Assembly (NCBI GenBank): GCA_903895255.1
Contig: CAITTG010000035.1
Location: forward strand, 26,714 to 90,713
Source of the DNA: an uncultured Verrucomicrobia subdivision 3 bacterium
Lineage (GTDB): Bacteria > Verrucomicrobiota > Verrucomicrobiia > Limisphaerales > UBA11358
DNA: 64,000 nt
Direction: 5' to 3'
In this document: positions 3,011 to 62,349 of the stretch, one piece after another
How the letters are laid out: the number at the start of each line of letters is the position of its first letter
Position numbering within the stretch: position 1 is the first letter of the stretch
Translations under genes and position numbers: made by a program
The notes under the pieces: model-generated
Seen by the model: only the letters and a program-made list of their open reading frames with translations
Told to the model about the DNA's origin: nothing
Databases searched by the model: none

Positions 3011-3040
3011 TTGACACATCCCTGATTAGGAGCCTATACT
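3011..3040 (+). promoter_or_regulatory. Sigma70-like promoter for the encapsulin operon
   Basis: TTGACA (3011-3016), 18-nt spacer, TATACT (3035-3040). This implies a leader of roughly 260 nt before the ATG at 3305. Confidence 0.45.
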
Positions 3041-3304
3041 AACACCTATCAATCGGTTGGTCCGAGAGCGGAGAGACTGCCAAGTTATCCGCCCGGGCAA
3101 AGCCTGCCGCATTGATTTCTTAGCCAACTGACCGGTCAACCGGAGGTTCGCACAAAATGCCCTGCATTTATGTGGAACAACTGCGTTTGCATTGATCGGT
3201 TCGCCAGCCCGGAAAAGCCTCTTTCCGGTGCTGTGACTGTCCCATGCCAGTTAATCCTCAGGGTGCGCGCGTATCGTTCCTTTTAACCTCCCCCCATTAA
3301 ATAT

Positions 3305-4270
3305 ATGCCTAACGAACCCCTTGAACCTCACTTGAGCCTCAGTGCCGCAGCGGCACGCAACCTTGCCACCGCGACGGTAACCGTCCCGCAAATCACCGAT
3401 ATCACGCCGCGCTGGCTGCACAAACTTCTGCCTTGGATCGATGTGGATGGTGGTGTGTACCGCGTCAACCGCGTGGCCAAGGCGGCCAAGGGCAAGCCGG
3501 CGAATGAATATGGCGAGGTCAAGGTGGACCTCCTCACCTCGGCTGCCGGCGAACCCAAGCTGCCCACCACCTTCGTGGATTACGAGGAAGACCCCCGCGA
3601 ATATCACCTGAGCACCATTCAAACGGTGTTGCGCACGCACACGCGCGTCACGGATCTTTACAGCAACAAAATTGACCAGTTGCGCGAGCAAATCCGCCTC
3701 ACGGTGGAAGCGGTGAAGGAACGCGAGGAATGGGAACTGCTCAACAACGCCGAATTCGGTTTGCTGAACGAAGTCAGCAAGACCCAAACCATTCAGACCC
3801 GCAAAGGCGCGCCCACGCCCGATGATTTGGATGAACTCCTCAGCTTGGTCTGGAAAAAGCCCGCTTTCTTTCTAGCCCATCCCAAGGCCATTGTCGCCTT
3901 CGGTCGCGAATGCACCCGCCGGGGCGTGCCGCCGCCCACGGTGCATTTGTTCGGCTCACCCTTCCTCACCTGGCGCGGAGTGCCCTTGATTCCCACAAAC
4001 AAGCTGGAAGTGAACGCCAAGTCCGCCACCACGAGCATTCTGTTGCTGCGCGTCGGCGAAGCCGAGCAGGGCGTGGTCGGTTTGCAAAAGACCGGCGTCA
4101 CCGGGGAAGTCGAACCCGGGCTCTCGGTGCGTTACATGGGCACGAATGAAAATTCCATCGCCTCCCACCTGGTCACCCGTTATTTTTCCGCGAGCGTGCT
4201 GACCACGGATGCCATTGCCCGCCTGGATAACGTCGCCGTGAACCTCTATCATGAGTACGACCGGAAATAA
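3305..4270 (+). CDS. Family 2A encapsulin shell protein (SrpI / mycobacterial MMP-I-like, HK97-fold, no cNMP-binding insert)
   Basis: 321 aa with blocks ITPRWLHKLLPW, GVYRVNRV, FVDYEEDPREYHL, GAPTPDDLDELL, FFLAHPKAIVAFGRECTRRGVPPP, FLTWRGVPLIP, GLSVRYMG, LDNVAVNLYHEY. These match my recollection of Family 2 encapsulins. It overlaps the desulfurase cargo gene by 20 nt. Confidence 0.85.
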   Translation: MPNEPLEPHLSLSAAAARNLATATVTVPQITDITPRWLHKLLPWIDVDGGVYRVNRVAKAAKGKPANEYGEVKVDLLTSAAGEPKLPTTFVDYEEDPREYHLSTIQTVLRTHTRVTDLYSNKIDQLREQIRLTVEAVKEREEWELLNNAEFGLLNEVSKTQTIQTRKGAPTPDDLDELLSLVWKKPAFFLAHPKAIVAFGRECTRRGVPPPTVHLFGSPFLTWRGVPLIPTNKLEVNAKSATTSILLLRVGEAEQGVVGLQKTGVTGEVEPGLSVRYMGTNENSIASHLVTRYFSASVLTTDAIARLDNVAVNLYHEYDRK

Positions 4271-5999
4271 TCTGTCGCCCAGTCTGGCGCCAGCCGAAGC
4301 GCCGGCGGAGCCCGCGCATTCGGACCTGGTCGCCCGCCTGGTGGCGGAGGCTTTTTCGGAAATCAGCCGGCCGCCCCGGCAGGTGACCGCGTTGCCCTCC
4401 GCACCCGCCGGTTTGACCACCAGCCTGCCAGGGACCGGCGGTTTGCCCGGAATCTCCGCCCCCGCCTCAGCGGGTGGTGTGCCTCCCGTGCATCCCTCGG
4501 CCCAGCCGGAAGCGCCCAAGCTGAGCCCGGTGGAGCCCACGACCTCTGGTGGTCACGCGGCGGATTCCGAGGACGCTTATGCTTTCGGCGAACCGCGCTG
4601 CAATGGCAACTTGCTGCAAAGCAAAAAGCCCGAAACCAAGCCCGCGGCCAGTAATCCGCTGGCCTCGCTTGGCGGGGCGGAGACCGCCACGCCGCCCGAA
4701 TTTTATTTCCTGCGCGGGGGCGAGCTTCCGGGGAAACTGCCCCAGCAGACCACGGGTCATGCCAAAACCGCCACCCCCGTGCCGTCCTTCGATGTCGAAG
4801 GGGTGCGGCGGGACTTTCCCGCCTTGCATCAACACGTCCATGGCAAACCGTTGATCTGGCTGGACAACGCCGCGACCACGCACAAACCGCAGGCGGTGAT
4901 TGACGCAACCTCGCAGTTCTACGCGCGCGATAACTCCAATATTCACCGGGCGGCCCACGCCCTGGCGGCGCGCTCCACCGAGTTGTTTGAGTCGGGCCGG
5001 GAAAAAGTTCGCAAATTCCTCGGGGCGGGGGATGCGAAGGAAATCGTTTTTGTGCGCGGCACCACCGAGGCCATCAACCTGGTGGCGAACAGTTACGGCC
5101 GCCAGCACATTGGCGCCGGGGACGAAATCATCCTGTCCGAACTGGAACACCACGCGAACATCGTCCCCTGGCAGTTGCTCGCGCAGCAGACCGGGGCGGT
5201 CATCAAAGTCATTCCCATCAATGACCGCGGCGAGTTAATTCTGGAAGAGTACGTCAAGTTGTTGAGCGGCCGCACCCGGTTTGTATCCGTGGCGCATGTT
5301 TCCAATTCCCTGGGCACCATCAATCCCGTGGAACAAATCATCGCGCTGGCCCACGCCCGGGGCGTGCCGGTGCTGATCGACGGCGCGCAGTCCACGCCGC
5401 ATATTCCCATCAATGTCACGGCGCTCGATGCCGATTTCTTCGTCTTCTCCGCGCACAAGATTTTTGGTCCCACGGGCATCGGCGCCCTGTACGGCAAGGC
5501 GGCCTTGCTGGAGTCCATGCCGCCCTGGCAGGGCGGGGGACACATGATCCGCGATGTGCGGTTTGAAAAGACTGAATATCAAAACGCCCCGGAAAAGTTC
5601 GAGGCGGGCACCCCGGACATCGCCGGCGTGGTGGGTTTGGGCGCGGCGATTGATTATTTGTTTCAAGTCGGCATTCCTGCCATCGCCGCTTACGAACACT
5701 CACTGCTGGAATACGCCACACAAGCCCTGGCCACCATACCCGGCCTGCGTCCCATTGGCACGGCGGCGAACAAGGCCAGCGTGCTGTCTTTTGTGATTCC
5801 CGGTTTGAACAATCAAGCGGTGGCCAAACATCTGGACAAGCACGGGATTGCCGTGCGGGCCGGCCACCACTGCGCCCAGCCGGCCCAGCGGCATTTTGGC
5901 CTGGAAAGCACCGTTCGCCCGTCGCTCGCGTTTTACAACACGCGCGCGGAAGTGGACACCCTCGTGCGCGTGCTGCATCATCTGCGGCGTCAGCCCTAA
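4251..5999 (+). CDS. Cysteine desulfurase (SufS/CsdA-type) with long disordered N-terminal encapsulin cargo-loading domain
   Basis: 582 aa. The first ~180 aa are Pro/Ala/Ser/Gly-rich and low complexity, with DLVARLVAEAFSE near the N-terminus. A class V fold follows: LDNAATTHKP, SAHKIFGPTGIGALYG (PLP Lys), RAGHHCAQP (catalytic Cys loop). Confidence 0.9.
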   Translation: MSTTGNNLSPSLAPAEAPAEPAHSDLVARLVAEAFSEISRPPRQVTALPSAPAGLTTSLPGTGGLPGISAPASAGGVPPVHPSAQPEAPKLSPVEPTTSGGHAADSEDAYAFGEPRCNGNLLQSKKPETKPAASNPLASLGGAETATPPEFYFLRGGELPGKLPQQTTGHAKTATPVPSFDVEGVRRDFPALHQHVHGKPLIWLDNAATTHKPQAVIDATSQFYARDNSNIHRAAHALAARSTELFESGREKVRKFLGAGDAKEIVFVRGTTEAINLVANSYGRQHIGAGDEIILSELEHHANIVPWQLLAQQTGAVIKVIPINDRGELILEEYVKLLSGRTRFVSVAHVSNSLGTINPVEQIIALAHARGVPVLIDGAQSTPHIPINVTALDADFFVFSAHKIFGPTGIGALYGKAALLESMPPWQGGGHMIRDVRFEKTEYQNAPEKFEAGTPDIAGVVGLGAAIDYLFQVGIPAIAAYEHSLLEYATQALATIPGLRPIGTAANKASVLSFVIPGLNNQAVAKHLDKHGIAVRAGHHCAQPAQRHFGLESTVRPSLAFYNTRAEVDTLVRVLHHLRRQP

Positions 6000-6005
6000 A
6001 CGCCT

Positions 6006-6542
6006 ATGAACGCCATTTCGCCCACCGCCCTCCAGTCATTGCTGCTGGCCAACCCCCGGCTGCCCTTGGTTGACGTGCGCACGCCCGTGGAGTTTGCCGA
6101 GGTGCATGTGCCCGCGGCGCGCAACGAGCCGCTGGACCGGTTCGACCCGGCCCAGTTGTTTGGCCCCGGTGGCCTGCCGAAAGACCAGCCGGTTTATATC
6201 CTGTGCCGCTCGGGTGCCCGGGCGGCCAAGGCGGCGGACAAAATGGTCCGGGCGGGTCTCACCAATGGCGTGGTCGTCACCGGCGGCACGCTGGCCTGGC
6301 AGGAGGCTGGTCTGCCGGTGGAGCGGGGAACGGTGAAAGTCATCAGCCTCGAACGCCAGGTCCGCATCGTCGCGGGTTCGCTGGTGGTGACCGGCGTGGT
6401 CCTCGCCCAACTGGTGAACCCCTGGTTCATTGGGCTCTCCGCGTTCGTCGGGGCCGGGCTGGTGTTTGCCGGCATCACGGATTTTTGTGGCATGGGACTC
6501 TTGCTCGCCCGCCTGCCTTGGAACAGCCGGAAACCGAGCTGA
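6006..6542 (+). CDS. Rhodanese-domain sulfurtransferase with C-terminal DUF2892/YgaP-like membrane tail
   Basis: 178 aa. Active-site loop ILCRSGARA (CxxxxR). The C-terminal hydrophobic segment VVTGVVLAQL...GAGLVFAGITDFCGMGLLL is typical of YgaP-type proteins. Confidence 0.85.
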   Translation: MNAISPTALQSLLLANPRLPLVDVRTPVEFAEVHVPAARNEPLDRFDPAQLFGPGGLPKDQPVYILCRSGARAAKAADKMVRAGLTNGVVVTGGTLAWQEAGLPVERGTVKVISLERQVRIVAGSLVVTGVVLAQLVNPWFIGLSAFVGAGLVFAGITDFCGMGLLLARLPWNSRKPS

Positions 6543-6589
6543 AACCGGCGGACCAAGTTACCGGTACTTTTTCTTAGATTGCCTGCTGC

Positions 6590-7507
6590 ATGCACAAAAT
6601 CCTGAGTCTCTACGTGCCCGAATTGCTCGCCTCCTACGAGCGGGTGGGCGGTTTGAACAACCGCGATTCGCACAACATGCCCTCCAAACGCGCGGTCGGC
6701 CAGATTTGTGAGGACCTGCTCCAGTTGCTCTTTCCCGGGTTTCACGATGACGATGCGGTGCATCACGGCTCGCTGGCCGACCTCACCACCGAGCGGCTCG
6801 CCCGGGTGGTGGCCCGCCTGACCGACCAGGTGCGCAAAAGCGTCCGCATCGGCGATCCGAAAAAGCCCACCGGCAAAACGCCGCCCATCATCGAGCAGTT
6901 CTGCAAAGCCCTGCCCGAAGTGCGGGAACTTCTTCGCACCGACATCGAGGCCGCCTTTGAAGGGGATCCGGCGGCGCTGGTGCGCGAGGAAATCATTGTC
7001 TCCTATCCCTTCATTGAAGCCATCGGCATTCAGCGCCTCGCCCACCGGTTGCACCGTTTGGGCGCGCCGTTCATCCCGCGCATGATGACCGAATGGGCGC
7101 ATGGGCGCACCGGCATTGACATCCATCCCGGAGCCGAGATCGGCACGCATTTCTTCATTGATCATGGCACGGGTGTGGTGGTCGGCGAGACCTGTGTGAT
7201 TGGCAACCACGTGAAGCTGTATCACGGCGTCACCCTCGGCGCCCGCAGTTTTGTGAAAGATGGGGCCGGGCATATTGTCAAAGGCGGCAAGCGCCATCCC
7301 AATGTGCAGGACCACGTTACCATCTATCCCAACTCCACCATCCTGGGCGGCGAGACCGTCATCGGCGCCCATTCCACCATCGGCGCGAATGTGTTCCTGA
7401 TGCAAAGTGTCCCGCCGCATTCACTGGTGGTGTATGAGGAAACGCAACTGAGCATCCGTAGCAAGCTCGCCAAAAGCCAGGCCGAGGGTTTTGACTGGAC
7501 GATTTAG
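6590..7507 (+). CDS. cysE: Serine O-acetyltransferase
   Basis: 305 aa. Has an N-terminal SATase helical domain, then left-handed beta-helix hexapeptide repeats GIDIHPGAEIGTHFFIDHGTGVVVGETCVIGNHVKLYHGVTLG. Confidence 0.85.
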   Translation: MHKILSLYVPELLASYERVGGLNNRDSHNMPSKRAVGQICEDLLQLLFPGFHDDDAVHHGSLADLTTERLARVVARLTDQVRKSVRIGDPKKPTGKTPPIIEQFCKALPEVRELLRTDIEAAFEGDPAALVREEIIVSYPFIEAIGIQRLAHRLHRLGAPFIPRMMTEWAHGRTGIDIHPGAEIGTHFFIDHGTGVVVGETCVIGNHVKLYHGVTLGARSFVKDGAGHIVKGGKRHPNVQDHVTIYPNSTILGGETVIGAHSTIGANVFLMQSVPPHSLVVYEETQLSIRSKLAKSQAEGFDWTI

Positions 7508-7625: not shown

Positions 7626-7922
7626 TCACAAATGCCGGGACGTGTCCATGCGCTCGTGTAAAATGCGCACGACATAAATCGTGTCCTCAATCGTGCGGTA
7701 ATAAATCCGGTGATGCCCAACTGCCAGGACCTTAACGGTTGGTTTCACGGAAGGACGGCCGGCGGAAGGATTCTGCAAAATAACGTGCAGCGCACCGTTG
7801 ATCCTGGCGCGGTATTTTGCCAGTTGCGATTCACCCCATGTGGTGAGCGTGTAGGCGAGAATGTCTCGAAAATCAGCTTTGGCCTGCGCTGCCAGCTGAA
7901 GGCGGTGTCTAGGGGATGACAT
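7626..7922 (-). CDS. parE: ParE/RelE-family type II toxin
   Basis: Trimmed from track ORF 7626-8165 to the ATG at 7922 (MSSPRHRLQLAAQAKADFRDIL...HHRIYYRTIEDTIYVVRILHERMD). Overlaps the antitoxin stop by 14 nt. Confidence 0.8.
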   Translation of the reverse strand: MSSPRHRLQLAAQAKADFRDILAYTLTTWGESQLAKYRARINGALHVILQNPSAGRPSVKPTVKVLAVGHHRIYYRTIEDTIYVVRILHERMDTSRHL

Positions 7923-8190
7923 CCGGATTGGTCGGCAGGTTGGTGGCGGCCTGTGTTCGCGCCTCCTGCTCGATCTCTTTGAGCAAATCCGGTGTGTAAG
8001 CAACCGTGCGGCCGGCGGCGATATCGCGGTCGCCAATGTCCAGTGCGGCCAGCAGCCGGCCATGCTGATCATCCTGCTCGCGCATGCGTCGAACGGCATC
8101 GCGCACCATTTCTGTGGCGTTGCTGTAATACCCGCTTTCGACCTTGGTTTTGATATAGCCGGCATCCACCGGCGGGAAGTTTATGTTCAT
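7909..8190 (-). CDS. parD: ParD-family (RHH) type II antitoxin
   Basis: 93 aa, MNINFPPVDAGYIKTKVESGYYSNATEMVRDAVRRMRE..., the typical ParD/CC2985 signature. Lies immediately upstream of, and overlapping, the toxin gene. Confidence 0.8.
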   Translation of the reverse strand: MNINFPPVDAGYIKTKVESGYYSNATEMVRDAVRRMREQDDQHGRLLAALDIGDRDIAAGRTVAYTPDLLKEIEQEARTQAATNLPTNPDVIP

Positions 8191-8323: not shown

Positions 8324-9511
8324 TTACACCCTGGCTGGCAAATGCTTTCGCACCCATTCCCCATCCGCCAGCTTTAACAACTTCTCCCCCGCCGCCCGCA
8401 GCGTCTCCTCCTTCTTCGCAAAATGAAACCGGATGAACCGGTGCTCGGGTTCGCGGAAGAAGCTCGACCCCGGAACACCGGCGACGCCGACTTCACGGAC
8501 GAACCACTCGGCGGCCTCCGTATCCTTGGTGAAGCCCAGCGGCGAGATATCCACCATCACATAATAGGCCCCTTGCGGTTCCGTGAAGCGCAGGCCGGTT
8601 CGGCGCAGGCAATCCAGAAACACCGCGCGCTTGGCGGTGTACACATCGCGCAGGCCGGCATAATAACTGTCCGGCAGTTCCAAGCCCGCCACCGCTGCCT
8701 CTTGCAAGGGCGCGGCCGCCCCCACCGTCAGAAAATCATGCACCTTGCGCGCCTGGGCAATGATCGCCGGGGCCGCATGCACATACCCCAGCCGCCAGCC
8801 GGTGATGGAGTAGGTTTTGGACAGGGAATTGCAAGTGATCGTGCGTTCCGCCGCCCCCGGCAGGCTGGCACAGTAAACGTGTTCGTGCGGCGCGTAGACG
8901 ATGTGTTCGTACGGTTCGTCCGTGATGACGAAGGCGTCATGCCGCTCCGCCAGCGCCAGAATCTCCAGCAATTCCGCGCGGGTAAACACCTTGCCGGTGG
9001 GATTCGAGGGATTGCAGACGATGATGGCCTTGGGCTTTTGCGCAAAGGCGCGGGCCAGTTCGGCCGAATCAAACCCAAAATCCGGCGCGTGCAGCGGCAC
9101 ATAAATCGGGATGGCTCCGGAGAGGATCGCATCCGCCGCGTAATTTTCGTAGAAGGGGGAAAATACAATGACGCGGTCGCCCGGATTGCACGCCGTCATC
9201 ATCGCCACCATCATGGCCTCGGTGCTGCCGCAGGTCACCACCAGATGCTGGTCCGGGTCCACGGGCAGGCCGGTGAAGCGCGTGATTTTCCGCGCCAGCG
9301 CCGCGCGAAACCGGGGTGCGCCCCAGGTGACCGCATACTGGTGAAACGGTCCGCGCGTGGCCCTTTCCAAGGCGGATAAGAGTTCCTCCGGCGGATCAAA
9401 ATCGGGAAAACCCTGGGCGAGATTAATGGCATGGTGACGGGTGGCAAGACGCGTCATCCCGCGAATCACCGATTCGGAAAACGCTGCAAGTCGGGTGGCC
9501 GGTAATGGCAT
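8324..9511 (-). CDS. Pyridoxal-phosphate-dependent aminotransferase, class I/II (YbdL/kynurenine-oxoglutarate type)
   Basis: 395 aa. Motifs INLAQGFPDF, CNPSNPTGKV, SLSKTYSITGWRLGY (PLP Lys), IRFHFAK. Confidence 0.9.
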   Translation of the reverse strand: MPLPATRLAAFSESVIRGMTRLATRHHAINLAQGFPDFDPPEELLSALERATRGPFHQYAVTWGAPRFRAALARKITRFTGLPVDPDQHLVVTCGSTEAMMVAMMTACNPGDRVIVFSPFYENYAADAILSGAIPIYVPLHAPDFGFDSAELARAFAQKPKAIIVCNPSNPTGKVFTRAELLEILALAERHDAFVITDEPYEHIVYAPHEHVYCASLPGAAERTITCNSLSKTYSITGWRLGYVHAAPAIIAQARKVHDFLTVGAAAPLQEAAVAGLELPDSYYAGLRDVYTAKRAVFLDCLRRTGLRFTEPQGAYYVMVDISPLGFTKDTEAAEWFVREVGVAGVPGSSFFREPEHRFIRFHFAKKEETLRAAGEKLLKLADGEWVRKHLPARV

Positions 9512-10478: not shown

Positions 10479-11972
10479 ATGAAACCCTCTGGCAAACCGC
10501 TCACTCTGGCCGTCTTTAGCGCGGCCTTTCTCTCCACGATCACGCTGGCCGCCAACGCCGATGTCATTACCGACTGGAATCTTACCACCGTCAGCGCCAC
10601 CAAGACCGCCGGTCTGAACAGCAATCTGGGCTCGCGCATCGATGCCATTGAAGCCATTGCCGTCTATGACGCGGTCAATTCCATCCGCCAGTTTGGCAAG
10701 CCCTATCACTATTACGCTCCCAACACCGGTTCCGCGCAGGCGGCGGCGGCCCAGGCGGCGCATGATGTGCTGGTGCATTACTTCCCCGCTCAGCAGTCAA
10801 GCCTCGATGCCCATCTGGCCAGCAGCCTGGCCGCCATCACGGATGGTCCGATTGGCAATGGTGAGACCGTGGGCGCGGCGGCGGCGGCGGATATCATCGC
10901 CTTGCGCGCCAACGACGGCTTCAGTCCCAACGTCACCTATCCCGGGCCCGCCACGATTGTTCCCGGCGCCTATCAGCTAACCCCGAACATTCCCACCGTG
11001 ACCGCCCCGCCCTACACGTTTAACAACGGCATCAACGAGCAATGGGGCACGGTCACGCCTTTTGTGCTGGCCACCACCAATCAATTTCGCCCCGGCCCGC
11101 CGCCCGCGCTGGACAGTGCGACCTACAGCAATGCCCTGGCGCAGGTGCAATCCCTGGGCGCGCTCAACAGCACCACCCGAACGGCCGACCAGACGCACAT
11201 CGCGAACTTTTACAAGCAGGACGCCGAGTTGACCGCCAACGAGGCGGCCCGGGAGGCGGCGATCACCCGCGGACTGGCGCTGGAGCAAAATGCGCTGCTT
11301 TTTGCGCTGGTGGACATTGCGGTGGCGGATGCACGCATCGCCATCTGGGACGCCAAATACACCTATCTATTCTGGCGTCCGGTGACGTCCTTGAACGCCA
11401 ACCCGGATGGCACGGTGACCAATAATTACAGCGCCTTTCAGCCGCTCGTGCTCACTCCCAATCATCCGGATTATCCCTGCGGCCACTGCGGCACGGTGAA
11501 TGCCGGCATCGAGGTGCTCAAGGCGTTTGTGGGGGATCAGAATACCGTTCAGTTACACACCACCACGGCTGGCGAGCCGGCCCGGCTGGTGCAGACGCTC
11601 AGCAATGTTGAATCGGAAAATGGCTGGAGCCGGGTGTATGGGGGCATTCATTATTCCTTCGACAACACGACCGCCCAGAGTATCGGCAACCAAGTGGCGG
11701 CCTATGTGCTGGCCAATGGCCCGGCCTTCATCCTGAATTCCACCGCCACCGCCCCCTCCCAGGTGGGCATTGCCACCTACCCGGGAATCACCATCACGGG
11801 CGTGGGCGGTCAGGCCTACCGGATTGATTACGCGACCTCGCTCGCGCCGACCAACTGGATTCCACTCAAGTACGTGACCCTGCCCAGCTCGGCCCCTTAT
11901 TTGGTCCAGGACACCACGCCTTACAGTGGCAGCGCCGCCCGGTATTACCGCGCGGTTGCGCTTTCCAACTAA
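10479..11972 (+). CDS. Secreted vanadium-dependent haloperoxidase-like / PAP2-superfamily protein
   Basis: 497 aa. Signal peptide MKPSGKPLTLAVFSAAFLSTITLAANA. Motifs LFWRPVT, HPDYPCGHC and SRVYGGIHY correspond to the acid-phosphatase/V-haloperoxidase active-site motifs. Has an extra C-terminal beta-rich domain. Confidence 0.8.
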   Translation: MKPSGKPLTLAVFSAAFLSTITLAANADVITDWNLTTVSATKTAGLNSNLGSRIDAIEAIAVYDAVNSIRQFGKPYHYYAPNTGSAQAAAAQAAHDVLVHYFPAQQSSLDAHLASSLAAITDGPIGNGETVGAAAAADIIALRANDGFSPNVTYPGPATIVPGAYQLTPNIPTVTAPPYTFNNGINEQWGTVTPFVLATTNQFRPGPPPALDSATYSNALAQVQSLGALNSTTRTADQTHIANFYKQDAELTANEAAREAAITRGLALEQNALLFALVDIAVADARIAIWDAKYTYLFWRPVTSLNANPDGTVTNNYSAFQPLVLTPNHPDYPCGHCGTVNAGIEVLKAFVGDQNTVQLHTTTAGEPARLVQTLSNVESENGWSRVYGGIHYSFDNTTAQSIGNQVAAYVLANGPAFILNSTATAPSQVGIATYPGITITGVGGQAYRIDYATSLAPTNWIPLKYVTLPSSAPYLVQDTTPYSGSAARYYRAVALSN

Positions 11973-12392: not shown

Positions 12393-12795
12393 TATTCTCG
12401 CCGGCCACGCCGCCACCCGGGCCCTGCCGCTGCAACTCCGTAGCGCGAAACAAAGTCACTCGCTCCGACGTGATACCGCCGCAGGACGGACCGGTCGTCA
12501 GGACTTCCAATTGGCCGGCGGCATAGCCCGTTTCCTCCAGTAATTCCCGTCTGGCGGCGGCCCGGGCGGATTCATGGTGCTCCCCCGGCTCATCACCGAT
12601 CACGCCTGCGGGCAACTCAATCGTGCGGGCTTGCAAGGGGATGCGGAATTGCTCCACCAGCAACAGCTCCTGCTGCGCCGTCACTGCCAAGATGATGGCC
12701 GCATTGCGCGCATTCACCCGGTCCACATATTCCCATGTGCCCGCCTTGACCAGTTTGAGAAACCGCCCGGTGTATTCCGTTATGGGTATTTCCAT
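12280..12795 (-). CDS. NUDIX hydrolase (ADP-ribose pyrophosphatase-like)
   Basis: 171 aa. Nudix box GVIGDEPGEHHESARAAARRELLEETGY. Confidence 0.85.
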   Translation of the reverse strand: MEIPITEYTGRFLKLVKAGTWEYVDRVNARNAAIILAVTAQQELLLVEQFRIPLQARTIELPAGVIGDEPGEHHESARAAARRELLEETGYAAGQLEVLTTGPSCGGITSERVTLFRATELQRQGPGGGVAGENITVHAIPLAEVAGWLAAQAETGRLIDPKVYAGLYFAR

Positions 12796-12979
12796 GGCCA
12801 GTATGTTAGAAAACTGGCGGCGGGAAGACTAATGGGAAAAAACGGGGCTGCCGGGCCGCATCACGTTGATCGTCCCCTGGGAACACAATGATCTGAAAAA
12901 TACAATTTTTGCCCCTCCACAGCGGATTTCCACGTTCCCCCAGTGTCAAACAATGCTGGCGAGAAATGGGGGCCTGAAA

Positions 12980-14509
12980 TCAAACCAGATGCCGCGCCTG
13001 GCGCTTTGGCAGCGTACGCGCGGGCTTGGCACCCGGCGCTGGTCCCGCGGGCAGGAACTCTTTCATAAAGCCGGGTTTGTCGAAGCGGCCCCCGTTTTGG
13101 TAATCGCGCCAGAGCGTTTCCGCGGCCAGTTTGGGGTCCAGCGCGAGTTCGTCGGTCAGGTATTCAAACAGCAATTCCATCAGCCGCACCAGGTTGATGC
13201 TGTCAGTGCGGCCCAGCCGGGCGTAGAGCCAGTCGCTCCAGCGCAGGAAGGCATGGAAGGGGGAGGCCGCCGAATGCCAGATCAGGGGCGTGGCGTGGCG
13301 GAAATTACCACTGTTGCCCACGGTATCCCAGTATTTGGCGAAGCGCCGGAGCCGTTGCATGGCTGGGAAATCAATCAGGCGGTTGCACAGAATCTCGTAG
13401 GGCGGTTGCGGATGCCACGTCAGGCCCCATTCCGCATCGTGGCGGATGATGGGGGTGCCGCGCAGCCGTTTGAGGATGCCCACCTGGATTTCTTGCGGGC
13501 CGAGGGCGATGAGACGGTCAAAGCCGGCCGCAAAACTTTCCAGCGTTTCCCCGGGCAGCCCCACAATGAGGTCGGCATGGATGTGCACCCCGGTGTGCTG
13601 GCGCAAGTAGGTGAAATTATCTTGAAGTTTCGCGTAGTTCTGCCGCCGGCTGATCAACTGCCCCACCGCCGGATTAAACGTCTGGATGCCCACCTCAAAT
13701 TGCAACATGCCGGGCGGAAACCGGGCGATGATTTCCCGCAAGTCCTCGGGCAGGCGGTCGGGGATCATTTCGAAGTGGAAGAAATGGCCGGGCTGGCTGC
13801 GTTCCAGCAGAAATTCCAGAATGGTCCGGCTGACGGCGACATTGAGATTAAACGTGCGGTCCACAAACTTGAACTGTTTGAGCCCGCGATCCAGCAGTTG
13901 CTGGAGTTGCTCCAGCAGGACGGGGAGGGGCACGGCCCGCACGGGAACATCCAGTGACGACAGACAGAATTCGCAGGTGAACGGGCAGCCGCGTGAGGCC
14001 TCAATGTAAACAATGCGATGGGCGATATCCTCCGCGCGATAGAACGAATACGGCAGGGTGAGCCGCGCGAAGTCGGGCAGTTCGGCGGCGATGATCTTGG
14101 GCAAGGGCGGTCCATCGCTCAACAATCCCGCGCACACTTCGGCGAATTTCAGATCCGCCTCGCCCGTGATGACATGGTCCGCGAGCTGGACGATGGCCTG
14201 GCCGTCGGTTTCGTAACTGACTTCCGGTCCGCCCAGGATGATTTTAATATCCGGCTGAATGCGGCGGATGGCGGCGATAACCGTAGTGGTGGGTTCGACA
14301 TTCCAAATATAAATCCCAAAGCCGATAATTTTCGGCCGGTGCGCCAGGATGGCTTCCACGATGTCCAGCGGCCGCTGGTTGATGTCAAATTCCACCAGGG
14401 TGGCGCGGGCTTGCAACGGGCCGAGGTTGGCCAGCAGGTAACGCAAACCAAACGCCGCATGGATGTATTTGGCGTTGAGGGTGGTTAAAAGAATGTCGGC
14501 CACCCGCAA
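12980..14509 (-). CDS. B12-binding-domain radical SAM protein (DUF4080-type C-terminus)
   Basis: 509 aa. N-terminal cobalamin-binding-like domain, then the radical SAM cluster motif ASRGCPFTCEFCLSS. Confidence 0.9.
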   Translation of the reverse strand: MRVADILLTTLNAKYIHAAFGLRYLLANLGPLQARATLVEFDINQRPLDIVEAILAHRPKIIGFGIYIWNVEPTTTVIAAIRRIQPDIKIILGGPEVSYETDGQAIVQLADHVITGEADLKFAEVCAGLLSDGPPLPKIIAAELPDFARLTLPYSFYRAEDIAHRIVYIEASRGCPFTCEFCLSSLDVPVRAVPLPVLLEQLQQLLDRGLKQFKFVDRTFNLNVAVSRTILEFLLERSQPGHFFHFEMIPDRLPEDLREIIARFPPGMLQFEVGIQTFNPAVGQLISRRQNYAKLQDNFTYLRQHTGVHIHADLIVGLPGETLESFAAGFDRLIALGPQEIQVGILKRLRGTPIIRHDAEWGLTWHPQPPYEILCNRLIDFPAMQRLRRFAKYWDTVGNSGNFRHATPLIWHSAASPFHAFLRWSDWLYARLGRTDSINLVRLMELLFEYLTDELALDPKLAAETLWRDYQNGGRFDKPGFMKEFLPAGPAPGAKPARTLPKRQARHLV

Positions 14510-16934: not shown

Positions 16935-17213
16935 ACGCGGAACAAGCTAAGCAAAACTGGGTTGGGGAGCAAGTCCGGTAAAAATTTTTAACATTTGCTG
17001 ATTTCGGCAAGCCATTTGCTGTAGTAAGGTCGTGTCCAATAGGTATGGTTAAGCTTTGGCTGGCATTACAGTTGACAAATTGGGTAAATGAGCCAATAAC
17101 GGATTGAAAGCTGGGTTTGGTGCCGGGTGCCCAAACCAACAGAAAAAACATGGTGCCGGACTGGATGTTTTTATTTAATCAGGAAGTTCAAAAAACGACG
17201 AATCGTTCATAGT

Positions 17214-18650
17214 ATGTTAAAAAATTATTCGCTCAACGGCGGGTTTGATGAAATGATTGACGCCCAGAGCGGGGTGCGACCGCACTACCGGAAGTTTCAA
17301 GAATTGTTCAGCACAATGACGCCCATGGAGTTTGAGGCCAAGCGCCAGGCGATTGATGCCGCCTTTCTGCGCCAGGGGGTCACCTTTAATGTCTACGGCG
17401 ATTCCCAAGGCGCGGAGAAAATCTTCCCTTTTGACCTGCTGCCCCGGATCATACCTGCCAAGGAATGGGAGCATTTGGAGCGCGGTCTGGCGCAGCGCAT
17501 CACCGCCCTGAACCTGTTCCTGCATGATATTTATCATGATCAGAAAATCCTGAAGGACGGAGTGATTCCGGAATTCTATGTGCTTTCCGCCCGCCATTTC
17601 CGCCGGGAATTTGTGAATTTTGAAGTGCCCAAGGGTATCTATATACACATTTGCGGCACGGATTTGATCCGGGACAAGGATGGCAATTACCTGGTGCTGG
17701 AGGATAATGGGCGCTGTCCCTCCGGCGTGAGTTATGTTTTGGAAAACCGCCGGGCCATGAAGCGGGCGTTTCCGCAAATGTTTGAGGGAGTGGGGGTGCA
17801 GTCGGTGGAGAATTATCCCCAGGAATTGCTCAAGAGCCTCCGTTACATCGCCCCCGCCGGGGTGGATGATCCCACAGTGGTGCTGCTGACCCCCGGGGTT
17901 TATAACAGTGCTTATTTTGAGCATACCTACCTGGCGCGGCAGATGGGTATTGAAATTGTGGAGGGCCGCGATTTGCTGGTGCGCAATTCCCGTGTGCTGA
18001 TGCGCACAACGAAGGGCTTGAAACCGGTGCATGTGATTTACCGGCGCATTGATGACGATTTTATTGATCCCACGGTGTTCCGCCGCGACTCGATGCTCGG
18101 CGTGCCGGGCCTCATTAATGCCTACCGGGCCGGCAATGTTTCCCTGGCCAATTCCATTGGCACGGGCATCGCGGACGACAAGGTGATGTATTATTTTGTG
18201 CCGCGCATGATCAAGTATTATCTCGATCAGGAACCCATCCTGCCCAATGTGCCCACGTTCCTGGCGAGCGAGCCGACCGACATGAAGTACATCATGGAAC
18301 ACCTGCCGGAGTTGGTCGTCAAGGCGGCCAACGAATCCGGCGGTTACGGCATGCTGATGGGACCCAAGGCTTCCAAGGCGGAAGTGGAGGCCTTCCGCGA
18401 ACGCATTATTGCGGAACCCCGCAATTACATTGCCCAGCCGATGATTTTCCTGTCCCAACACCCGACTTATTGCGACGATACCTTTGATGGCCGCCATGTG
18501 GATCTGCGCCCGTTTATCTTGTCTGGCGAGCGCATCAGCATTATCCCCGGCGGTTTGACCCGGGTGGCGTTGCGCAAGGGCTCGCTGGTGGTGAACTCCT
18601 CGCAGGGCGGGGGGAGCAAAGACACCTGGGTTTTGTATGGCGATGAATAA
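17214..18650 (+). CDS. Circularly permuted type-2 ATP-grasp protein (COG2308 family)
   Basis: Trimmed to the ATG at 17214 ([16 protein letters not shown]...). Conserved blocks [58 protein letters not shown]. First gene of the ATP-grasp/alpha-E/transglutaminase triad. Confidence 0.9.
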
Positions 18651-18686
18651 CTCAACCGACTGGAAATTTACCATTAAATTATTGTC

Positions 18687-19715
18687 ATGTTAAGCCGCGT
18701 TGCCTGCTCGCTCTATTGGATGGCCCGTCATATTGAACGGGCCGAAAACATCGCCCGGATCGTGGACGTCAACCTGCAGTTGCTGCTGGACATGCGGCAC
18801 CTGGATGAGAAAAAGCTGGCTGAATACTGGCTGCCCATCGTCCAGGCCACGGGCGACGAGGAAGCCTTCTTCAAACTGCACCCCCGGCCCACCGCCCAGG
18901 CGGTCACGGAATTTCTGGTGTTTCAAAATGAAAACCCGAATTCCATCGTGCAATCCATCTGCCAGGCGCGTGAAAACGCCCGCATGGTGCGCGACCAGAT
19001 CACCCAGGAAATCTGGGAGGAACTCAACCGCCTCTACCTCTTTATCCGCTCCCCCCATGCGCGCGAAGTGTGGCGCCGCAGCCCCAGCGAATTCTTTCAA
19101 GAGGTCAAGGCCGGGTCCTTGCATTTTATCGGGATTGCCAACGCCACGTTGATTCACAACGAAGGCTGGTGGTTTGTGCAGACGGGGCAGTTCATTGAGC
19201 GCGCGGACAAAACCACGCGTATTCTGGATGTGCGCTACGAAACCATTCCGGAACGCGGCACCCCCAAAGCCATCACCCAGAGCAACTCCTTGGAATGGTC
19301 GGCCGTCCTGCGTTCCTGCAGCGCCTGGGATGCCTACAAATCCCTTTATGGGGCGGATGTGCATCCCCGCGAAGTGGCGGAGTTTCTGCTGCTGGACGAT
19401 ACCTTTCCCCGGTCCCTGCGCTTTTGCGTGGCGGAGTTAAACCGGGCGGTCCGCCGGATTTCCGGCGTGTCCGAGGGGCATTTTGTCAACAACGCCGAAA
19501 AACTGACCGGCCGGTTGCTCGCCGAGTTGCAGTTCGGCACCATCGAGGAGATCTTTGACATTGGCCTGCACAAATATCTGGACGACGTCCAACTCAAACT
19601 TAATAACATTGGCGAGGCGCTTTTCCAGGCGTACATTTTCCAGTCTTTCCTAAATCCGGATGCGGAACACATGGTGCAACAAGAGGAGCAACAGCAACAA
19701 TCCTTGCGGCCTTGA
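18687..19715 (+). CDS. Alpha-E domain protein (COG2307 family)
   Basis: 342 aa. MLSRVACSLYWMARHIERAENIARIVDVN is the characteristic alpha-E N-terminus. Confidence 0.85.
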   Translation: MLSRVACSLYWMARHIERAENIARIVDVNLQLLLDMRHLDEKKLAEYWLPIVQATGDEEAFFKLHPRPTAQAVTEFLVFQNENPNSIVQSICQARENARMVRDQITQEIWEELNRLYLFIRSPHAREVWRRSPSEFFQEVKAGSLHFIGIANATLIHNEGWWFVQTGQFIERADKTTRILDVRYETIPERGTPKAITQSNSLEWSAVLRSCSAWDAYKSLYGADVHPREVAEFLLLDDTFPRSLRFCVAELNRAVRRISGVSEGHFVNNAEKLTGRLLAELQFGTIEEIFDIGLHKYLDDVQLKLNNIGEALFQAYIFQSFLNPDAEHMVQQEEQQQQSLRP

Positions 19716-19724
19716 GTTGTTCTC

Positions 19725-20555
19725 ATGAGATATGACATCTTGCACAGCACCCGCTACGTGTATGCGTCAGCGGTGCGGGACAGCTTTAATGACGTCCGGC
19801 TGCATCCGGTTCCCAACCCGGATCAGACGGTGGAGTCTTTTTTATTAAAGGTGCTGCCCGCTGCGCGACTGAGCCATTACGTGGATTTTTACCGGAACTG
19901 GGTGCATCACTTTGAGATTCCCGAGACGCATGCCTATTTGCTGATTGAAAGCCGCTCCCGGGTCACCACCCACCCGCCGCCGCCGCTCTCCGTTTCCGAG
20001 CCGGTTTGTTCATTTGATAAATTGGTGGAGGCCAACAACGTGGAACGTTGCTTTGATTATTTGCAGAGCAGCCGGTACATCGAGATTGAAACCGAGGTCT
20101 GGCGGCTGGCGGTGGATGCCACCATGGGCAAAAAGGATGTCTGGCACGCCATTGTGGCCCTCATGGAATTTGTGCATGGTTATCTCAAGTACGAGTCCAA
20201 GTCCACCCATGTGCACACGCACATGCGCGAGGTGCTCAAAGAGCGGCGCGGGGTGTGCCAGGATTTCGCGCACCTGATGATCGGGCTGTGCCGGTCGCTG
20301 AAAATTCCCGCGCGATATATCAGTGGTTATCTGGCCACGGAGGATGCCAGCGCGACGCACGCGTGGGTGGAGGCCTTCGTGCCCGGCGTCGGCTGGCGTG
20401 CGCTGGACCCCACGCACAACCGGCAGATGGATGGCACGTACGTGAAAATCGGGCACGGGCGGGATTACGCGGATGTGCCGCCGATCGCGGGGAATTACCG
20501 GGGGACGCTGGAACGGACGATGACGGTGGAGGTGAAGATCACGCCGGTGGTGTGA
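19725..20555 (+). CDS. Transglutaminase-like cysteine peptidase family protein (COG1305) with N-terminal Bact_transglu_N-type domain
   Basis: 276 aa. RRGVCQDFAHLMIGLCRSLKIPARYISGY (catalytic Cys), HAWVEAF (His), GWRALDPTH (Asp). Confidence 0.9.
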   Translation: MRYDILHSTRYVYASAVRDSFNDVRLHPVPNPDQTVESFLLKVLPAARLSHYVDFYRNWVHHFEIPETHAYLLIESRSRVTTHPPPPLSVSEPVCSFDKLVEANNVERCFDYLQSSRYIEIETEVWRLAVDATMGKKDVWHAIVALMEFVHGYLKYESKSTHVHTHMREVLKERRGVCQDFAHLMIGLCRSLKIPARYISGYLATEDASATHAWVEAFVPGVGWRALDPTHNRQMDGTYVKIGHGRDYADVPPIAGNYRGTLERTMTVEVKITPVV

Positions 20556-23525: not shown

Positions 23526-25700
23526 TCAATATGGCAGCGGGAAACGAGCCGTCAACTCCCGTACGCGCTGGTGGACATTCCCGGCGGCTTCCACATTTTT
23601 GACATCCAGCAACACCTCCGAAATCATGTCCGCAATGGCGGCCATTTCGGCTTCTTTCATGCCGCGGGTGGTGACGGCCGGGGTGCCGAGGCGAATGCCG
23701 CTGGCCTGGAAGGGCGAGCGCGTTTCCCCGGGGATGGTGTTCTTGTTCACCGTGATGCCGGCGGCGTCGAGGGCGATCTGGGCGTCCTTGCCCGTCACAT
23801 TTTTCGCGCCCACGTCCACGAGCATGAGATGATTGTCAGTGCCACCGCTGACGAGGCGGTAGCCATTGCGCTGCATCCCGGCGGCCAGGGCGGCGGCATT
23901 TTTTACCACTTGCTGTTGATAGGTCTTGAAGCCGGGTTGCAGGGCCTCATGAAAACAGACGGCCTTGCCCGCAATCACGTGCTCCAGCGGACCGCCCTGA
24001 ATCCCGGGAAACACCTGCGAATCAATTTCCTTCGCATATTTTTCGCGGCACAAAATCAAGCCTCCGCGCGGCCCGCGGAGCGTCTTGTGCGTGGTGGTGG
24101 TCACGAAATCAGCATGCTCAATAGGGCTGGGATGGATGCCTGCCGCCACCAGACCCGCGATATGCGCGATGTCCGCCAGCAGATAAGCGCCGACTTCCTT
24201 CGCAATCTCGCCCATGCGCGCGAAATCGATGGTCCGGGGATAGGCACTGGCGCCCACGGTGATCATGCGCGGCTGGTGCTCCCGCGCCATCGCCGCCAGT
24301 TGGTCGTAGTCAATCCGCTCATCGCCCGGACGCACGCCGTAGTGCACAATTTCAAAAAATTTACCCGAGAAATTCGCCTTGTTCCCGTGGGTCAAATGAC
24401 CGCCGTGGCTCAAGTCCATCGTCAGCATCTTGTCGCCCGGCTTCAGAAAGGCGAAGTACACGGCCATGTTGGCACCCGAACCCGAGTGGGGCTGGACGTT
24501 CGCATGCTCGGCCCCAAACAGCTTTTTCGCGCGGTCAATCGCCAGTTGTTCGATCACATCAATGTTCTCGCAACCACCGTACCAGCGCTTCTTCGGATAA
24601 CCCTCGGCGTATTTGTTGGTCAGCACCGAACCCTGGGCTTCCATCACGGCCGGACTGGTGAAGTTTTCCGAGGCAATCAACTCAATGTTTTCCTGCTGGC
24701 GCAGGCGTTCATGCTCCACGGATTCCGACACCGCCGGATCCACATTGCGCAAGCGCCACTCCGGCGCGGCAAAATGGCTGTCCAGCTTGTTTACCCGGCG
24801 CTCGTGCCGGCCGCCCTCGAATTCCGCCGCCAGGAAAGTGTCCAGGATTTTCACGCCCTGCTCCGGCGTGGTGAGCCGCTGGCCCAGGCACAGGATGTTG
24901 GCATCGTTGTGCTGGCGGCTGAGCGACGCCATTTGCTCATTGACGACCAGCGCGGCCCGGATGCCGGCATATTTGTTCGCCGAAATGCTCATGCCAATGC
25001 CCGTGGTGCAGACCAGCAGGCCGAATTCCGCCTGGCCGGTGTTCACCGTTTCCGCCACGGTTTTGGCAAAGTCCGGATAATCCACCGATTCCTTGGATTG
25101 GGTGCCAAAGTCCCGGAAGGTGACGCCGCGCTTTTCCAGATGCGCTTTGAGGGCTTCCTTCAGTTCAAACCCGCCGTGGTCCGCGCCGATCGCAAATTTG
25201 GTGATGGCGGCGGTGCTGGCGGCCTGGGGTCCGTGCAAGACATGATGTTGTTCCATAAAATGCAAAAGCGAGGCAATGCCCTGCTCAATCTGGTCGCGGG
25301 TGTTGAGATAAACCTGATACGACCCGCCGATCGGGTCGCTGATGTCTTTCTCATATGGCTCCAGGGTTTCATCGAATTCCCGGACCAAAAATGCCTTCTC
25401 CGCCATTTGCGGGTACATGAGGGCAATCGTTTCCACATGACTGTGGGTCATGCCAAAAATATAATCGGCCTGGCGGACCAGGTCGGCCGTGAGCATGCGG
25501 CTGCGCTGGCCGGAAATATCGATGCCCAGCTCGCGCATCGCGCGAACGGAATGCGGTGTCGGCGGCTGGCCATCCAGGGCCCCCAGCCCGGCGGACAGCA
25601 CCCGGAACTGGCCCCGTCCCCGCACCGCCTCGCGGAACAGCCCCTCGGCCATCGGGCTGCGACAAACATTGCCGGTGCAAATGAATAAAATGGTTTTCAT
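23526..25700 (-). CDS. glyA: Tri-domain fusion: low-molecular-weight protein phosphatase + ribose-5-phosphate isomerase B + serine hydroxymethyltransferase
   Basis: Single uninterrupted ORF, trimmed to the ATG at 25700 ([20 protein letters not shown], the CX5R(S/T) phosphatase loop). RpiB/LacAB block [14 protein letters not shown]...[20 protein letters not shown] block [30 protein letters not shown]...[14 protein letters not shown]. Confidence 0.9.
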
Positions 25701-25750
25701 CTCGCGAAAAAAACAGGGTGAATTGGCCGGGGCCAATCGTCAACTTGAAA

Positions 25751-47989: not shown

Positions 47990-48112
47990 CTTCTCATTTT
48001 TCCCGAACGCACCCGCATTCAGGCTGGATTTGGCACCTGCGTTAAAACCGAAGTCTTAACCGGTTGCCGTGGCTTCATCGGGCCAGTCCCTCTGCCACTC
48101 TGCATGAGATTC
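47990..48112 (-). promoter_or_regulatory. SAM-I (S-box) riboswitch aptamer
   Basis: The minus strand reads UCUCAUGCAGAGUGGCAGAGGGACUGGCCCGAUGAAGCCACGGCAACC...GGUGCCAAAUCCAGCC...AAAAUGAGA. It contains the invariant GAGGGA, UGGCCCGAUGAA, GGCAACC and GGUGCYAAAUCCAGC blocks and a closing P1 (UCUCAU/AUGAGA). Confidence 0.9.
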
Positions 48113-62164: not shown

Positions 62165-62349
62165 TTTAAAGAGACCCCACCATTGCCGTGTGCGACTGAC
62201 CCTTTGAACATGTTATAGTAACATGTGGAACCCCTCCGGCTGCTTTCGACTTCCAGTCAAGGCATGTCGGCCACAACCTAAAATTGGCTCCGGTGATCGT
62301 TTAATCTACGGTTCAAGGATTGTACGAATCACGAACAGGGCAGGGAAAT
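62165..62349 (-). ncRNA. ssrS: 6S RNA candidate
   Basis: The minus strand starts AUUUCCCUGCCCUGUUCGUG and ends ...GUUCAAAGGGUCAGUCGCACACGGCAAUGGUGGGGUCUCU. This parallels my recollection of E. coli 6S (AUUUCUCUGAGAUGUUCGC ... GUUCAAGGGUUACAGCCUGCGGCGGCAUCUCGGAGA). The 5' CCCUGCC pairs with the 3' GGUGGGG. About 185 nt. Lies in an AT-richer 450-nt gap upstream of rarA and 5-FTHF cyclo-ligase. The ends are approximate. Confidence 0.6.

Follow-up and report, generated by a model that had tools for sequence, protein, structure and literature searches.

The four genes located at positions 3305-7507 on the forward (+) strand of a 64,000-nucleotide (nt) stretch of contig CAITTG010000035.1, the whole stretch analysed being referred to here as the window, are interpreted, with a probability of about 0.88, as the desulfurase encapsulin operon of a Verrucomicrobiota bacterium, the function of which is assigned by homology. 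The first gene (3305-4270, +) specifies a 321-amino acid (aa) Family 2A-type, HK97-fold encapsulin shell protein without a cyclic nucleotide monophosphate (cNMP) domain, and is followed by genes for a 582-aa SufS-type cysteine desulfurase (4251-5999, +), a 178-aa rhodanese of the YgaP type (6006-6542, +) and a 305-aa serine O-acetyltransferase (SAT; 6590-7507, +), which is SrpH/EpsC-like and assigned to the encapsulin-associated type. The ATG of the desulfurase gene lies inside the last codons of the shell gene, generating a 20-nt overlap (4251-4270), the desulfurase and rhodanese genes are separated by 6 nt and the rhodanese and SAT genes by 47 nt, and the GC content of the locus (0.58-0.65) is the same as that of the surrounding sequence.

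As judged from the deduced proteins, the four-gene set described for the desulfurase encapsulin operon (Benisch et al. 2024) is complete and present on one strand, in the order encapsulin (Enc), cysteine desulfurase (CD), rhodanese (R) and acetyltransferase (AT), i.e. Enc-CD-R-AT. Chance is ruled out as an explanation, considering the very low E-values obtained and the fact that dozens of independent genomes share this gene order. A previous inspection of the letters, carried out by a model (termed here the sequence-only reading), had matched the locus to the desulfurase-containing sulfur-metabolism compartment of Synechococcus and Acinetobacter, and this match is upheld by the presence of all four components, by the identity of the shell and by the loading motifs of the desulfurase.

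Shell protein and desulfurase

Profile searches with Family 2/SrpI-like models placed the shell protein in the expected family, with matches to Pfam PF19307 (SrpI-like; 371.9 bits, E 1.6e-111, cut-off 22.8) and to NCBIfam NF041162 (encap_f2a; 466.7 bits, cut-off 380), the latter being aligned as a single stretch over model positions 1-295 of 295, and the Pfam search of the 321-aa protein returned no match to the cNMP-binding domain PF00027. The solved 2A shells 6X8M (SrpI), 8T6R (Acinetobacter) and 9KSL, 8WOL and 8WON (mycobacterial) were matched by sequence with E-values of 1e-103 to 1e-111 across residues ~8-319, and identity over the full length amounts to 57-59% for the solved SrpI, Acinetobacter and Mycobacterium shells and to 8-15% for phage capsids. 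An AlphaFold (AF2) model of the shell was built on an alignment of diverse 50%-identity cluster representatives (predicted local distance difference test score, pLDDT, 84.3; predicted template modelling score, pTM, 0.77) and includes a short helix at residues 14-20. When this model was submitted to Foldseek, the shells 8T6R, 8WOL and 6X8M were retrieved first (template modelling, TM, scores 0.80-0.92), followed by Family 2B shells and then by phage capsids including HK97. The modelled protein is an HK97-fold Family 2 protein without a cNMP-binding domain, closest to the solved 2A shells. Both the profile searches and the structure prediction, which had been proposed as checks by the sequence-only reading, are in agreement with its description of a Family 2 shell from which the cNMP insert is missing.

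The desulfurase was matched by Aminotran_5 at 480.9 bits and by TIGR01979 (sufS) at 547 bits (cut-off 475.1), and displays the active-site motifs HHAN, containing the histidine that stacks on pyridoxal phosphate (PLP), at residue 300, SAHK, containing the PLP-binding lysine, at 400 and RAGHHCA, representing the catalytic-cysteine loop, at 536. The catalytic domain (4806-5999, +), which starts with RRDFP at residue 186, is predicted to be a PLP-dependent cysteine desulfurase of group II (SufS/CsdA-type). It is preceded by a disordered N-terminal domain (NTD; residues 1-185; 4251-4805, +), the putative cargo-loading domain, which is composed of 15% Pro, 15% Ala, 10% Gly and 10% Ser. In an alignment of 79 homologous desulfurase NTDs, four conserved islands were distinguished within an otherwise unconserved sequence, these being LxxRLxxExFS (residues 26-36), PPVHP (78-82), FGEPRC (112-117) and FYFL (151-154), the last of which is represented as [FY][YF]F[LIVM] in 72 of the 79 domains. 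The desulfurases associated with SrpI carry the motifs 'LARLANEFFS' and 'AASPYYFLDG' (PMC8049743), to which LxxRLxxExFS and FYFL, respectively, correspond. Cargo loading through multiple discontinuous motifs has been described for both Acinetobacter (PMC10836720) and Mycobacterium (PMC11659603), and the motif pattern of the NTD fits such a loading mode; a predicted cargo provided with a targeting sequence is encoded next to the shell, as is expected of an encapsulin.

The sequence-only reading had reported a SufS-type desulfurase overlapping the shell gene by 20 nt, with which the TIGR01979 match and the overlap read at 4251-4270 are consistent, as well as a Pro/Ala-rich disordered extension of ~180 aa, which was retrieved here as 185 residues with both published loading motifs present. 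An overlap between shell and cargo genes is also found in Azospirillum, in Kitasatospora and in a locus from a Methylacidiphilales genome (L078).

These data also bear on the possibility that the 321-aa protein is the leftover major capsid protein of a prophage and the desulfurase an ordinary SufS. Such an origin would be compatible with the HK97-like fold, with a weak match of the shell to the phage capsid model NF045672 (22 bits) and with the Foldseek matches of the shell model to phage capsids at E about 1e-11, but is considered extremely improbable and was rejected: no phage genes (terminase, portal, protease or other) occur within the 64-kb window, the shell is far closer to solved encapsulin shells (57-59%) than to phage capsids, the desulfurase carries a loading domain in which both motifs are found, its gene overlaps that of the shell, sufBCDE genes are lacking from the immediate neighbourhood, and more than 150 loci retain the shell-desulfurase pair. 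The remainder of the window represents ordinary chromosome, encoding Rho, an NAD-dependent DNA ligase, RsgA, a 6S RNA and a DUF1559 protein.

Descent of the shell

Families 2A and 2B were defined by Andreas & Giessen (PMC8346489) through the absence or presence, respectively, of the cNMP domain and explicitly not by phylogeny, and the shell, having no internal cNMP-binding domain, is by this structural definition a member of Family 2A. It had been described in the sequence-only reading as a SrpI/MMP-I-like 2A shell, of which the structural assignment stands, whereas the implied kinship does not: the nearest relatives are 2B shells rather than classical 2A shells, the core of the window shell being 80% identical to the 2B shell of L078, as compared to 59.5% for SrpI and 57-59.5% for the classical 2A shells. 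The 2B model NF041163 was matched at 477 bits (cut-off 400) in two stretches which omit the cNMP part of the model, and the fact that this score slightly exceeds that of the 2A model (466.7 bits) is attributed to the ancestry of the shell.

Shells of the 2B type, 463-475 aa in length, are present in L078, L080 and L083 (a Methylobacterium megaplasmid), in each of which the insert follows 'YRVNR' and the sequence on both sides of this insert is 74-80% identical to the window shell; in the 473-aa shell of L078, Pfam detected the PF00027 cNMP-binding domain at 46.6 bits. The exact site of the cNMP domain in the 2B shells is occupied in the window shell by a short linker (3473-3517, +; residues 57-71), with the sequence VAKAAKGKPANEYGE, such that ~14-15 residues are found where 2B shells hold a cNMP-binding domain of ~150 aa. 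This linker is a low-confidence part of the AF2 model (pLDDT 55-59). When the shells were aligned, '...AAQAKSNEYGE..DLLT..GEPKLP' proved to be common to the window shell and the 2B shells of L078 and L080, and the '..DLLT..GEPKLP' segment which follows VAKAAKGKPANEYGE was also recognised in distant Streptomyces 2B shells, and was absent from the aligned SrpI, Acinetobacter, Azospirillum and Methylosinus shells. The linker is thought likely to be a remnant of the 2B post-domain linker.

A neighbour-joining tree was computed from the shared core of the shells (310 columns, 300 bootstraps), in which the classical 2A shells (SrpI/MMP-I/Acinetobacter) formed a clade with 100% bootstrap support that excludes the window shell, while the clade containing the latter clustered together with the three 2B shells. 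None of these 300 bootstraps showed a clean 2A|2B split, nor did any of 200 bootstraps of a larger tree to which 50%-identity cluster representatives had been added, some of the metagenomic representatives possibly being fragments. Among such representatives, the best-scoring one is a 468-aa 2B-type protein displaying 73% identity to the window shell. The shell is therefore placed outside the classical 2A lineage of SrpI-like shells, which leaves its structural 2A label unaffected.

It appears likely, on comparison of the aligned shells, that the cNMP domain was lost by deletion in the lineage of the window, leaving a linker of ~14 residues; a point to be set against this direction of change (loss versus gain) is that it rests on neighbour-joining nodes with 14-35% support together with the short linker similarity. 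With a linker in place of the cNMP domain, nucleotide-dependent regulation would be absent from this shell. In more general terms, the annotation labels 2A and 2B do not follow descent, which matters whenever regulation or cargo type is inferred from the label.

Rhodanese, acetyltransferase and gene order

The 178-aa rhodanese is composed of a rhodanese domain (6006-6329, +; PF00581, 48.5 bits) with the active-site loop CRSGAR, read as CRSGARA when extended by one residue, and a YgaP-like two-helix membrane anchor (6342-6530, +; residues 113-175; PF11127, 39.7 bits, cut-off 25.3), the latter being matched to the transmembrane domain of Escherichia coli YgaP (2MPN) at E 1.6e-16 and showing hydropathy maxima at residues 118-170. 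In combining a catalytic-cysteine rhodanese domain with a PF11127 two-helix membrane domain, the protein is predicted to be of the YgaP type. Its relationship to the rhodaneses of characterised operons is distant: it is 36% identical to the rhodanese of the Synechococcus operon, a tblastn comparison with the Acinetobacter rhodanese Ab-RLD gave no match, and the N-terminal extension of the Ab-RLD type is missing from the window protein, which has a C-terminal membrane tail instead. The structure 2FSX, to which the Ab-RLD cluster is closely related, was matched at E 1.4e-4 over 35 residues only. Encapsulin-associated rhodaneses have been described as a single homogeneous cluster whose members carry an extension at the N-terminus (PMC10925157), and no paper in the literature searched mentions YgaP and encapsulins together. 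As far as could be checked, a membrane-tailed encapsulin-associated rhodanese has thus not been described.

The acetyltransferase matches, by means of its hexapeptide-repeat core, the cysE model TIGR01172 (149 bits, cut-off 210.65) and the EpsC model NF041874 (145.2 bits, cut-off 150). It is 44% identical to Synechococcus SrpH across residues 28-291 (264 residues), a protein named as an EpsC-type SAT by RefSeq, and 43% identical to the AT of the Acinetobacter operon. Because of these two identities the 305-aa protein is assigned to the encapsulin-associated type of SAT, as a predicted orthologue of both SrpH and the Acinetobacter AT. The presence of cysE on the same strand after a short gap had been noted in the sequence-only reading and is confirmed by its location at 6590-7507 (+), 47 nt downstream of the rhodanese gene.

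The conservation of this arrangement was assessed in 80 related genome loci, 71 of which were informative, i.e. with enough sequence downstream of the desulfurase gene. A tail-bearing rhodanese is encoded in 47 of these 71 loci and lies directly downstream of the desulfurase gene in 35, with the tail retained in all 35. The sequence-only reading had singled out the membrane-tailed rhodanese (CRSGARA loop, YgaP-like tail) as a notable variation; tail and loop are indeed present, but the feature is clade-wide rather than specific to this locus. The Cys-x4-Arg loop is retained in 47 of 48 tail-bearing homologues of the clade, in which sequence conservation is higher in the membrane domain than in the catalytic domain. 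In approximately eight more loci (Luteolibacter, Haloferula and relatives) the rhodanese gene is found ~500 nt downstream of the desulfurase gene. Cultivated bacteria with the operon include Luteolibacter sp. Populi, Brevifollis gellanilyticus and Haloferula sp. BvORR071. In L069 (Luteolibacter sp. Populi), one of the loci with a more distant rhodanese gene, a HAD-like open reading frame of 156 aa (10674-11144) intervenes between the desulfurase gene and that of the YgaP-type rhodanese, and the acetyltransferase gene is followed by a PALP-family gene (335 aa, probably cysK; 12696-13703); the same gap of ~500 nt is seen in L061, L064, L065, L068 and L071, and the window operon has neither of these two L069 genes. 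The SAT gene is present in most related loci.

For comparison, 80 classical 2A loci were retrieved from metagenomes using the Acinetobacter, Synechococcus, Azospirillum and Methylosinus shells as seeds, 31 of them being informative. A rhodanese of the Ab-RLD type is encoded upstream, in the order R-AT-Enc-CD, in 30 of these 31, and an adjacent YgaP-like tail in none, the sample being biased towards Acinetobacter-like shells. The membrane-anchored rhodanese is assessed from these comparisons as a clade-wide, non-orthologous replacement of the soluble Ab-RLD-type rhodanese.

The bias of the classical sample is one of several findings that tell against the interpretation put forward here. This rhodanese is lacking in L001, the closest relative (93% shell identity), as well as in every Nitrospira locus, and is therefore not essential to the system. 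The desulfurase obtained 791.8 bits with NF041166 (f2_encap_cargo1), for which the cut-off is 800, across residues 103-578, a deficit of 8 bits that is explained by the divergence of the N-terminal domain, the first ~100 residues of which do not align. Moreover, the sequence occurs in pond and freshwater DNA metagenomes only, the RNA sequencing runs searched for it having yielded no match.

The absence of the rhodanese from L001 and the Nitrospira loci would also suit an arrangement in which only shell and desulfurase form the system, with rhodanese and SAT being sulfur-metabolism neighbours that may be co-regulated without acting on the compartment. The position of the SAT gene, which is upstream or elsewhere in many related loci, points in the same direction, as do the reports that the rhodanese of Acinetobacter, the role of which is unknown, is not carried as cargo (PMC10925157) and that about half of the published operons are devoid of a rhodanese (PMC10836720). 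This explanation is nevertheless judged unlikely, given that rhodanese and SAT have been recruited beside the shell-desulfurase pair in lineages using non-orthologous rhodaneses (YgaP-type versus Ab-RLD-type), which argues for selection for function rather than chance adjacency, and that the membrane tail was kept in every one of the 35 rhodaneses adjoining a desulfurase. A four-component desulfurase encapsulin operon remains the preferred interpretation.

Proposed function, surroundings and known systems

By analogy with the Synechococcus, Acinetobacter and Mycobacterium systems, 60 shell subunits would assemble into a T=1 shell of ~24 nm, an expectation that derives from the identity of the window protein to shells solved as T=1 60-mers, and the desulfurase would be held inside by its N-terminal domain, which would make several discontinuous contacts. 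L-cysteine would enter through the five-fold pores and be converted to L-alanine, and the sulfur released in this reaction would build up as elemental or polysulfide sulfur, shielded from the reductants of the cell. Sulfur starvation is the probable inducer of the operon, and the acetyltransferase would supply O-acetylserine to cysteine synthesis. For the rhodanese, support for a role is less extensive: its catalytic domain may be kept on the cytoplasmic side of the inner membrane, where it could act as the acceptor or mobiliser of sulfur for the compartment, or else supply sulfane sulfur from thiosulfate.

A main role other than sulfur storage, whether the removal of excess cysteine or the channelling of persulfide to one acceptor pathway, with little mineral sulfur being formed in vivo, has to be weighed at this point, since detoxification and channelling have both been raised as open possibilities (PMC10836720, PMC8346489) and a dedicated membrane-anchored acceptor would suit channelling. 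Such a role is regarded as quite improbable, because loaded shells of the Acinetobacter homologue have been directly demonstrated to deposit sulfur in their interior and the mycobacterial homologue has been shown to retain sulfur, and because a five-fold pore of about 6 Å keeps protein acceptors out of the lumen. Sulfur storage is retained as the expected role of the compartment.

A tentative and rather doubtful extension of the storage model is that the verrucomicrobial/Nitrospira lineage exchanged a soluble rhodanese for the membrane YgaP type, with the inner membrane as the site at which its shells are docked or serviced, and that the shell is a secondary 2A shell derived from a cNMP-regulated 2B ancestor. 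If this were true, a protected sulfur store would be coupled to the traffic of sulfur compounds (thiosulfate, thiocyanate) across the membrane, and the nucleotide regulation of desulfurase compartments would be readily lost. Sulfur storage by bacteria in desulfurase encapsulins was described only recently. The present findings suggest that the Verrucomicrobiota and their relatives, a large lineage of environmental bacteria from peat, soil and freshwater, rely on a different, membrane-anchored partner rhodanese, which offers a concrete, testable handle on the remobilisation of sulfur from the store.

The host is a Limisphaerales-like member of the Verrucomicrobiota from a pond metagenome. Its nearest genomic relatives are metagenome-assembled genomes (MAGs) with shells of 85-93% identity, most of which bear the label Verrucomicrobiota, Limisphaerales, Pedosphaera or Verrucomicrobia subdivision 3, and close homologues are already named 'family 2A encapsulin nanocompartment shell protein [Verrucomicrobiota bacterium]' at NCBI. 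Eight loci (L001, L004, L006, L017, L018, L020, L029 and L053) with shells 76-93% identical to that of the window stem from third-party 'binchicken' or SRP-coded assemblies and are titled Bifidobacteriaceae, Bifidobacterium or Enterobacteriaceae. Such titles appear untrustworthy, the majority of the other close relatives being labelled Verrucomicrobiota. No paper discussing encapsulins in Verrucomicrobiota was found in the literature searched, which accords with the remark in the sequence-only reading that the system had not been studied in bacteria of the Planctomycetes-Verrucomicrobia-Chlamydiae (PVC) superphylum, to which the host belongs.

Upstream of the operon, a hairpin followed by a T-run (about 2890-2925) is located after the preceding aminotransferase gene. 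A sigma-70-like promoter candidate (3011-3040, +), comprising TTGACA, an 18-nt spacer and TATACT, agrees with the consensus at 11 of 12 positions, being a consensus match only; it would give rise to a leader of ~260 nt, and its TTGACA hexamer is kept in L001. Within this leader, a conserved 49-nt block (3128-3176, +), which includes the palindrome CCGGTCAACCGG, shares 88% identity with L001, the remainder of the leader not being alignable between the two sequences compared, and possibly constitutes an operator or the binding site of a regulator. A search of the 433-nt upstream region against Rfam retrieved no known RNA element at the gathering threshold, and permissive E-values gave chance-level matches only. 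Considering that no Rfam family was found and that the folding of the leader is only slightly better than that of shuffled sequences (z-score -2.1), no riboswitch is claimed. The end of the operon is not defined by a terminator scan, which retrieved 8 sites as compared to 7.7 in shuffled sequence.

Two flanking aminotransferase genes were considered as parts of the system and discarded. For the upstream class-V enzyme (1783-2871), no convincing match was obtained in the 80 related loci, the two matches of 26-28% identity both being inside the desulfurase gene, itself a class-V enzyme, and the downstream class-I/II enzyme (8324-9511, -) is present in merely 5 of the 80. Directly after the SAT gene, a parDE toxin-antitoxin pair is encoded (7626-8190, -; ParD at 7909-8190 and ParE probably at 7626-7922), which has the appearance of a recent insertion, as neither gene occurs in any of the 80 related loci.

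Elsewhere in the window, the 6S RNA gene is located at 62170-62349 (-; Rfam RF00013, 66 bits), and a SAM (S-adenosylmethionine) riboswitch (47991-48110, -; 83.5 bits) lies upstream of a threonine-synthase-family gene (46623-47879, -; TIGR00260, 284 bits), an unusual target for this class of riboswitch; the gene might specify a MetM-like enzyme of an O-phosphohomoserine route to methionine. A 736-aa triple fusion (23526-25736, -) joins a low-molecular-weight phosphatase/ArsC-like domain to ribose-5-phosphate isomerase B and serine hydroxymethyltransferase. A three-gene cluster (17127-20555, +) specifies circularly permuted ATP-grasp, alpha-E domain and transglutaminase-like proteins, a trio believed to be widespread and conserved and of unknown role. 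A 497-aa protein (10479-11972, +) with an N-terminal hydrophobic, signal-peptide-like segment shows weak, sub-threshold similarity to the helical domains of PAP2 and vanadium chloroperoxidase, and had no NCBIfam match.

Among the systems with which the operon can be compared, E. coli YgaP (2MPN for the membrane domain, 2MOI and 5HBL for the rhodanese domain) resembles the window rhodanese in size and architecture, consisting of a rhodanese domain and two C-terminal transmembrane helices, whereas the rhodanese domains themselves are distantly similar (E about 1e-6) and YgaP has no known encapsulin link. Its active-site loop, CQAGKR, differs from the CRSGAR of the window protein. The Family 2B locus L078, from a Methylacidiphilales MAG, shares with the window the shell, an overlapping desulfurase gene whose product carries the same N-terminal motifs, and a YgaP-type rhodanese; it differs in the ~150-aa cNMP-binding domain after 'YRVNR', in place of which the window shell has its linker of ~14 residues.

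The type of system has already been characterised structurally and biochemically in three organisms. The SrpI/CyD system of Synechococcus elongatus PCC 7942 (6X8M/6X8T; Nichols et al. 2021, PMC8049743) is similar in the fold and family of its shell (58-59% identity), in its SufS-type desulfurase, the N-terminal loading domain of which is disordered and carries the two conserved motifs, in a rhodanese encoded downstream of the desulfurase, in an orthologous SAT (SrpH, 44%) and in a toxin-antitoxin pair directly after the cluster (VapC there, parDE in the window). It is different in being plasmid-borne with the order cysK-SAT-shell-CD-rhodanese, in its 116-aa rhodanese, which is 36% identical to that of the window and has no membrane tail, and in a shell of the classical 2A clade without the NEYGE linker segment.

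The operon of Acinetobacter baumannii 118362 (8T6R; Benisch et al. 2024, PMC10836720) likewise includes shell, desulfurase, rhodanese and serine O-acetyltransferase, its shell being 58% identical and the best Foldseek match (TM 0.81/0.86) and its SAT 43% identical. It has the order R-AT-Enc-CD, with the accessory genes upstream, as opposed to Enc-CD-R-AT in the window. Its rhodanese Ab-RLD (PMC10925157) has the loop CRSGNR, comparable to CRSGAR, but is soluble and dimeric, having a helical extension at the N-terminus and no membrane tail, and gave no tblastn match to the window rhodanese. The Mmp1/Enc-CD system of Mycobacterium smegmatis (8WOL, 8WON; PMC11659603) is a member of the classical 2A clade in which the N-terminal domain is shorter (155 aa) and for which a YgaP-type rhodanese has not been reported; it shares with the window the 2A shell fold (about 55% identity; T=1 there; Foldseek TM 0.82/0.87) and a cargo with a disordered N-terminal region containing several short motifs, no single one of which is sufficient for loading in that organism.

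Compared to these systems, the operon of the window does not represent a new kind of system, but an uncharacterised member, from a phylum in which it is known from annotation and has yet to be studied, distinguished by two modest variant features, namely the YgaP-type rhodanese and the 2B-affiliated shell.

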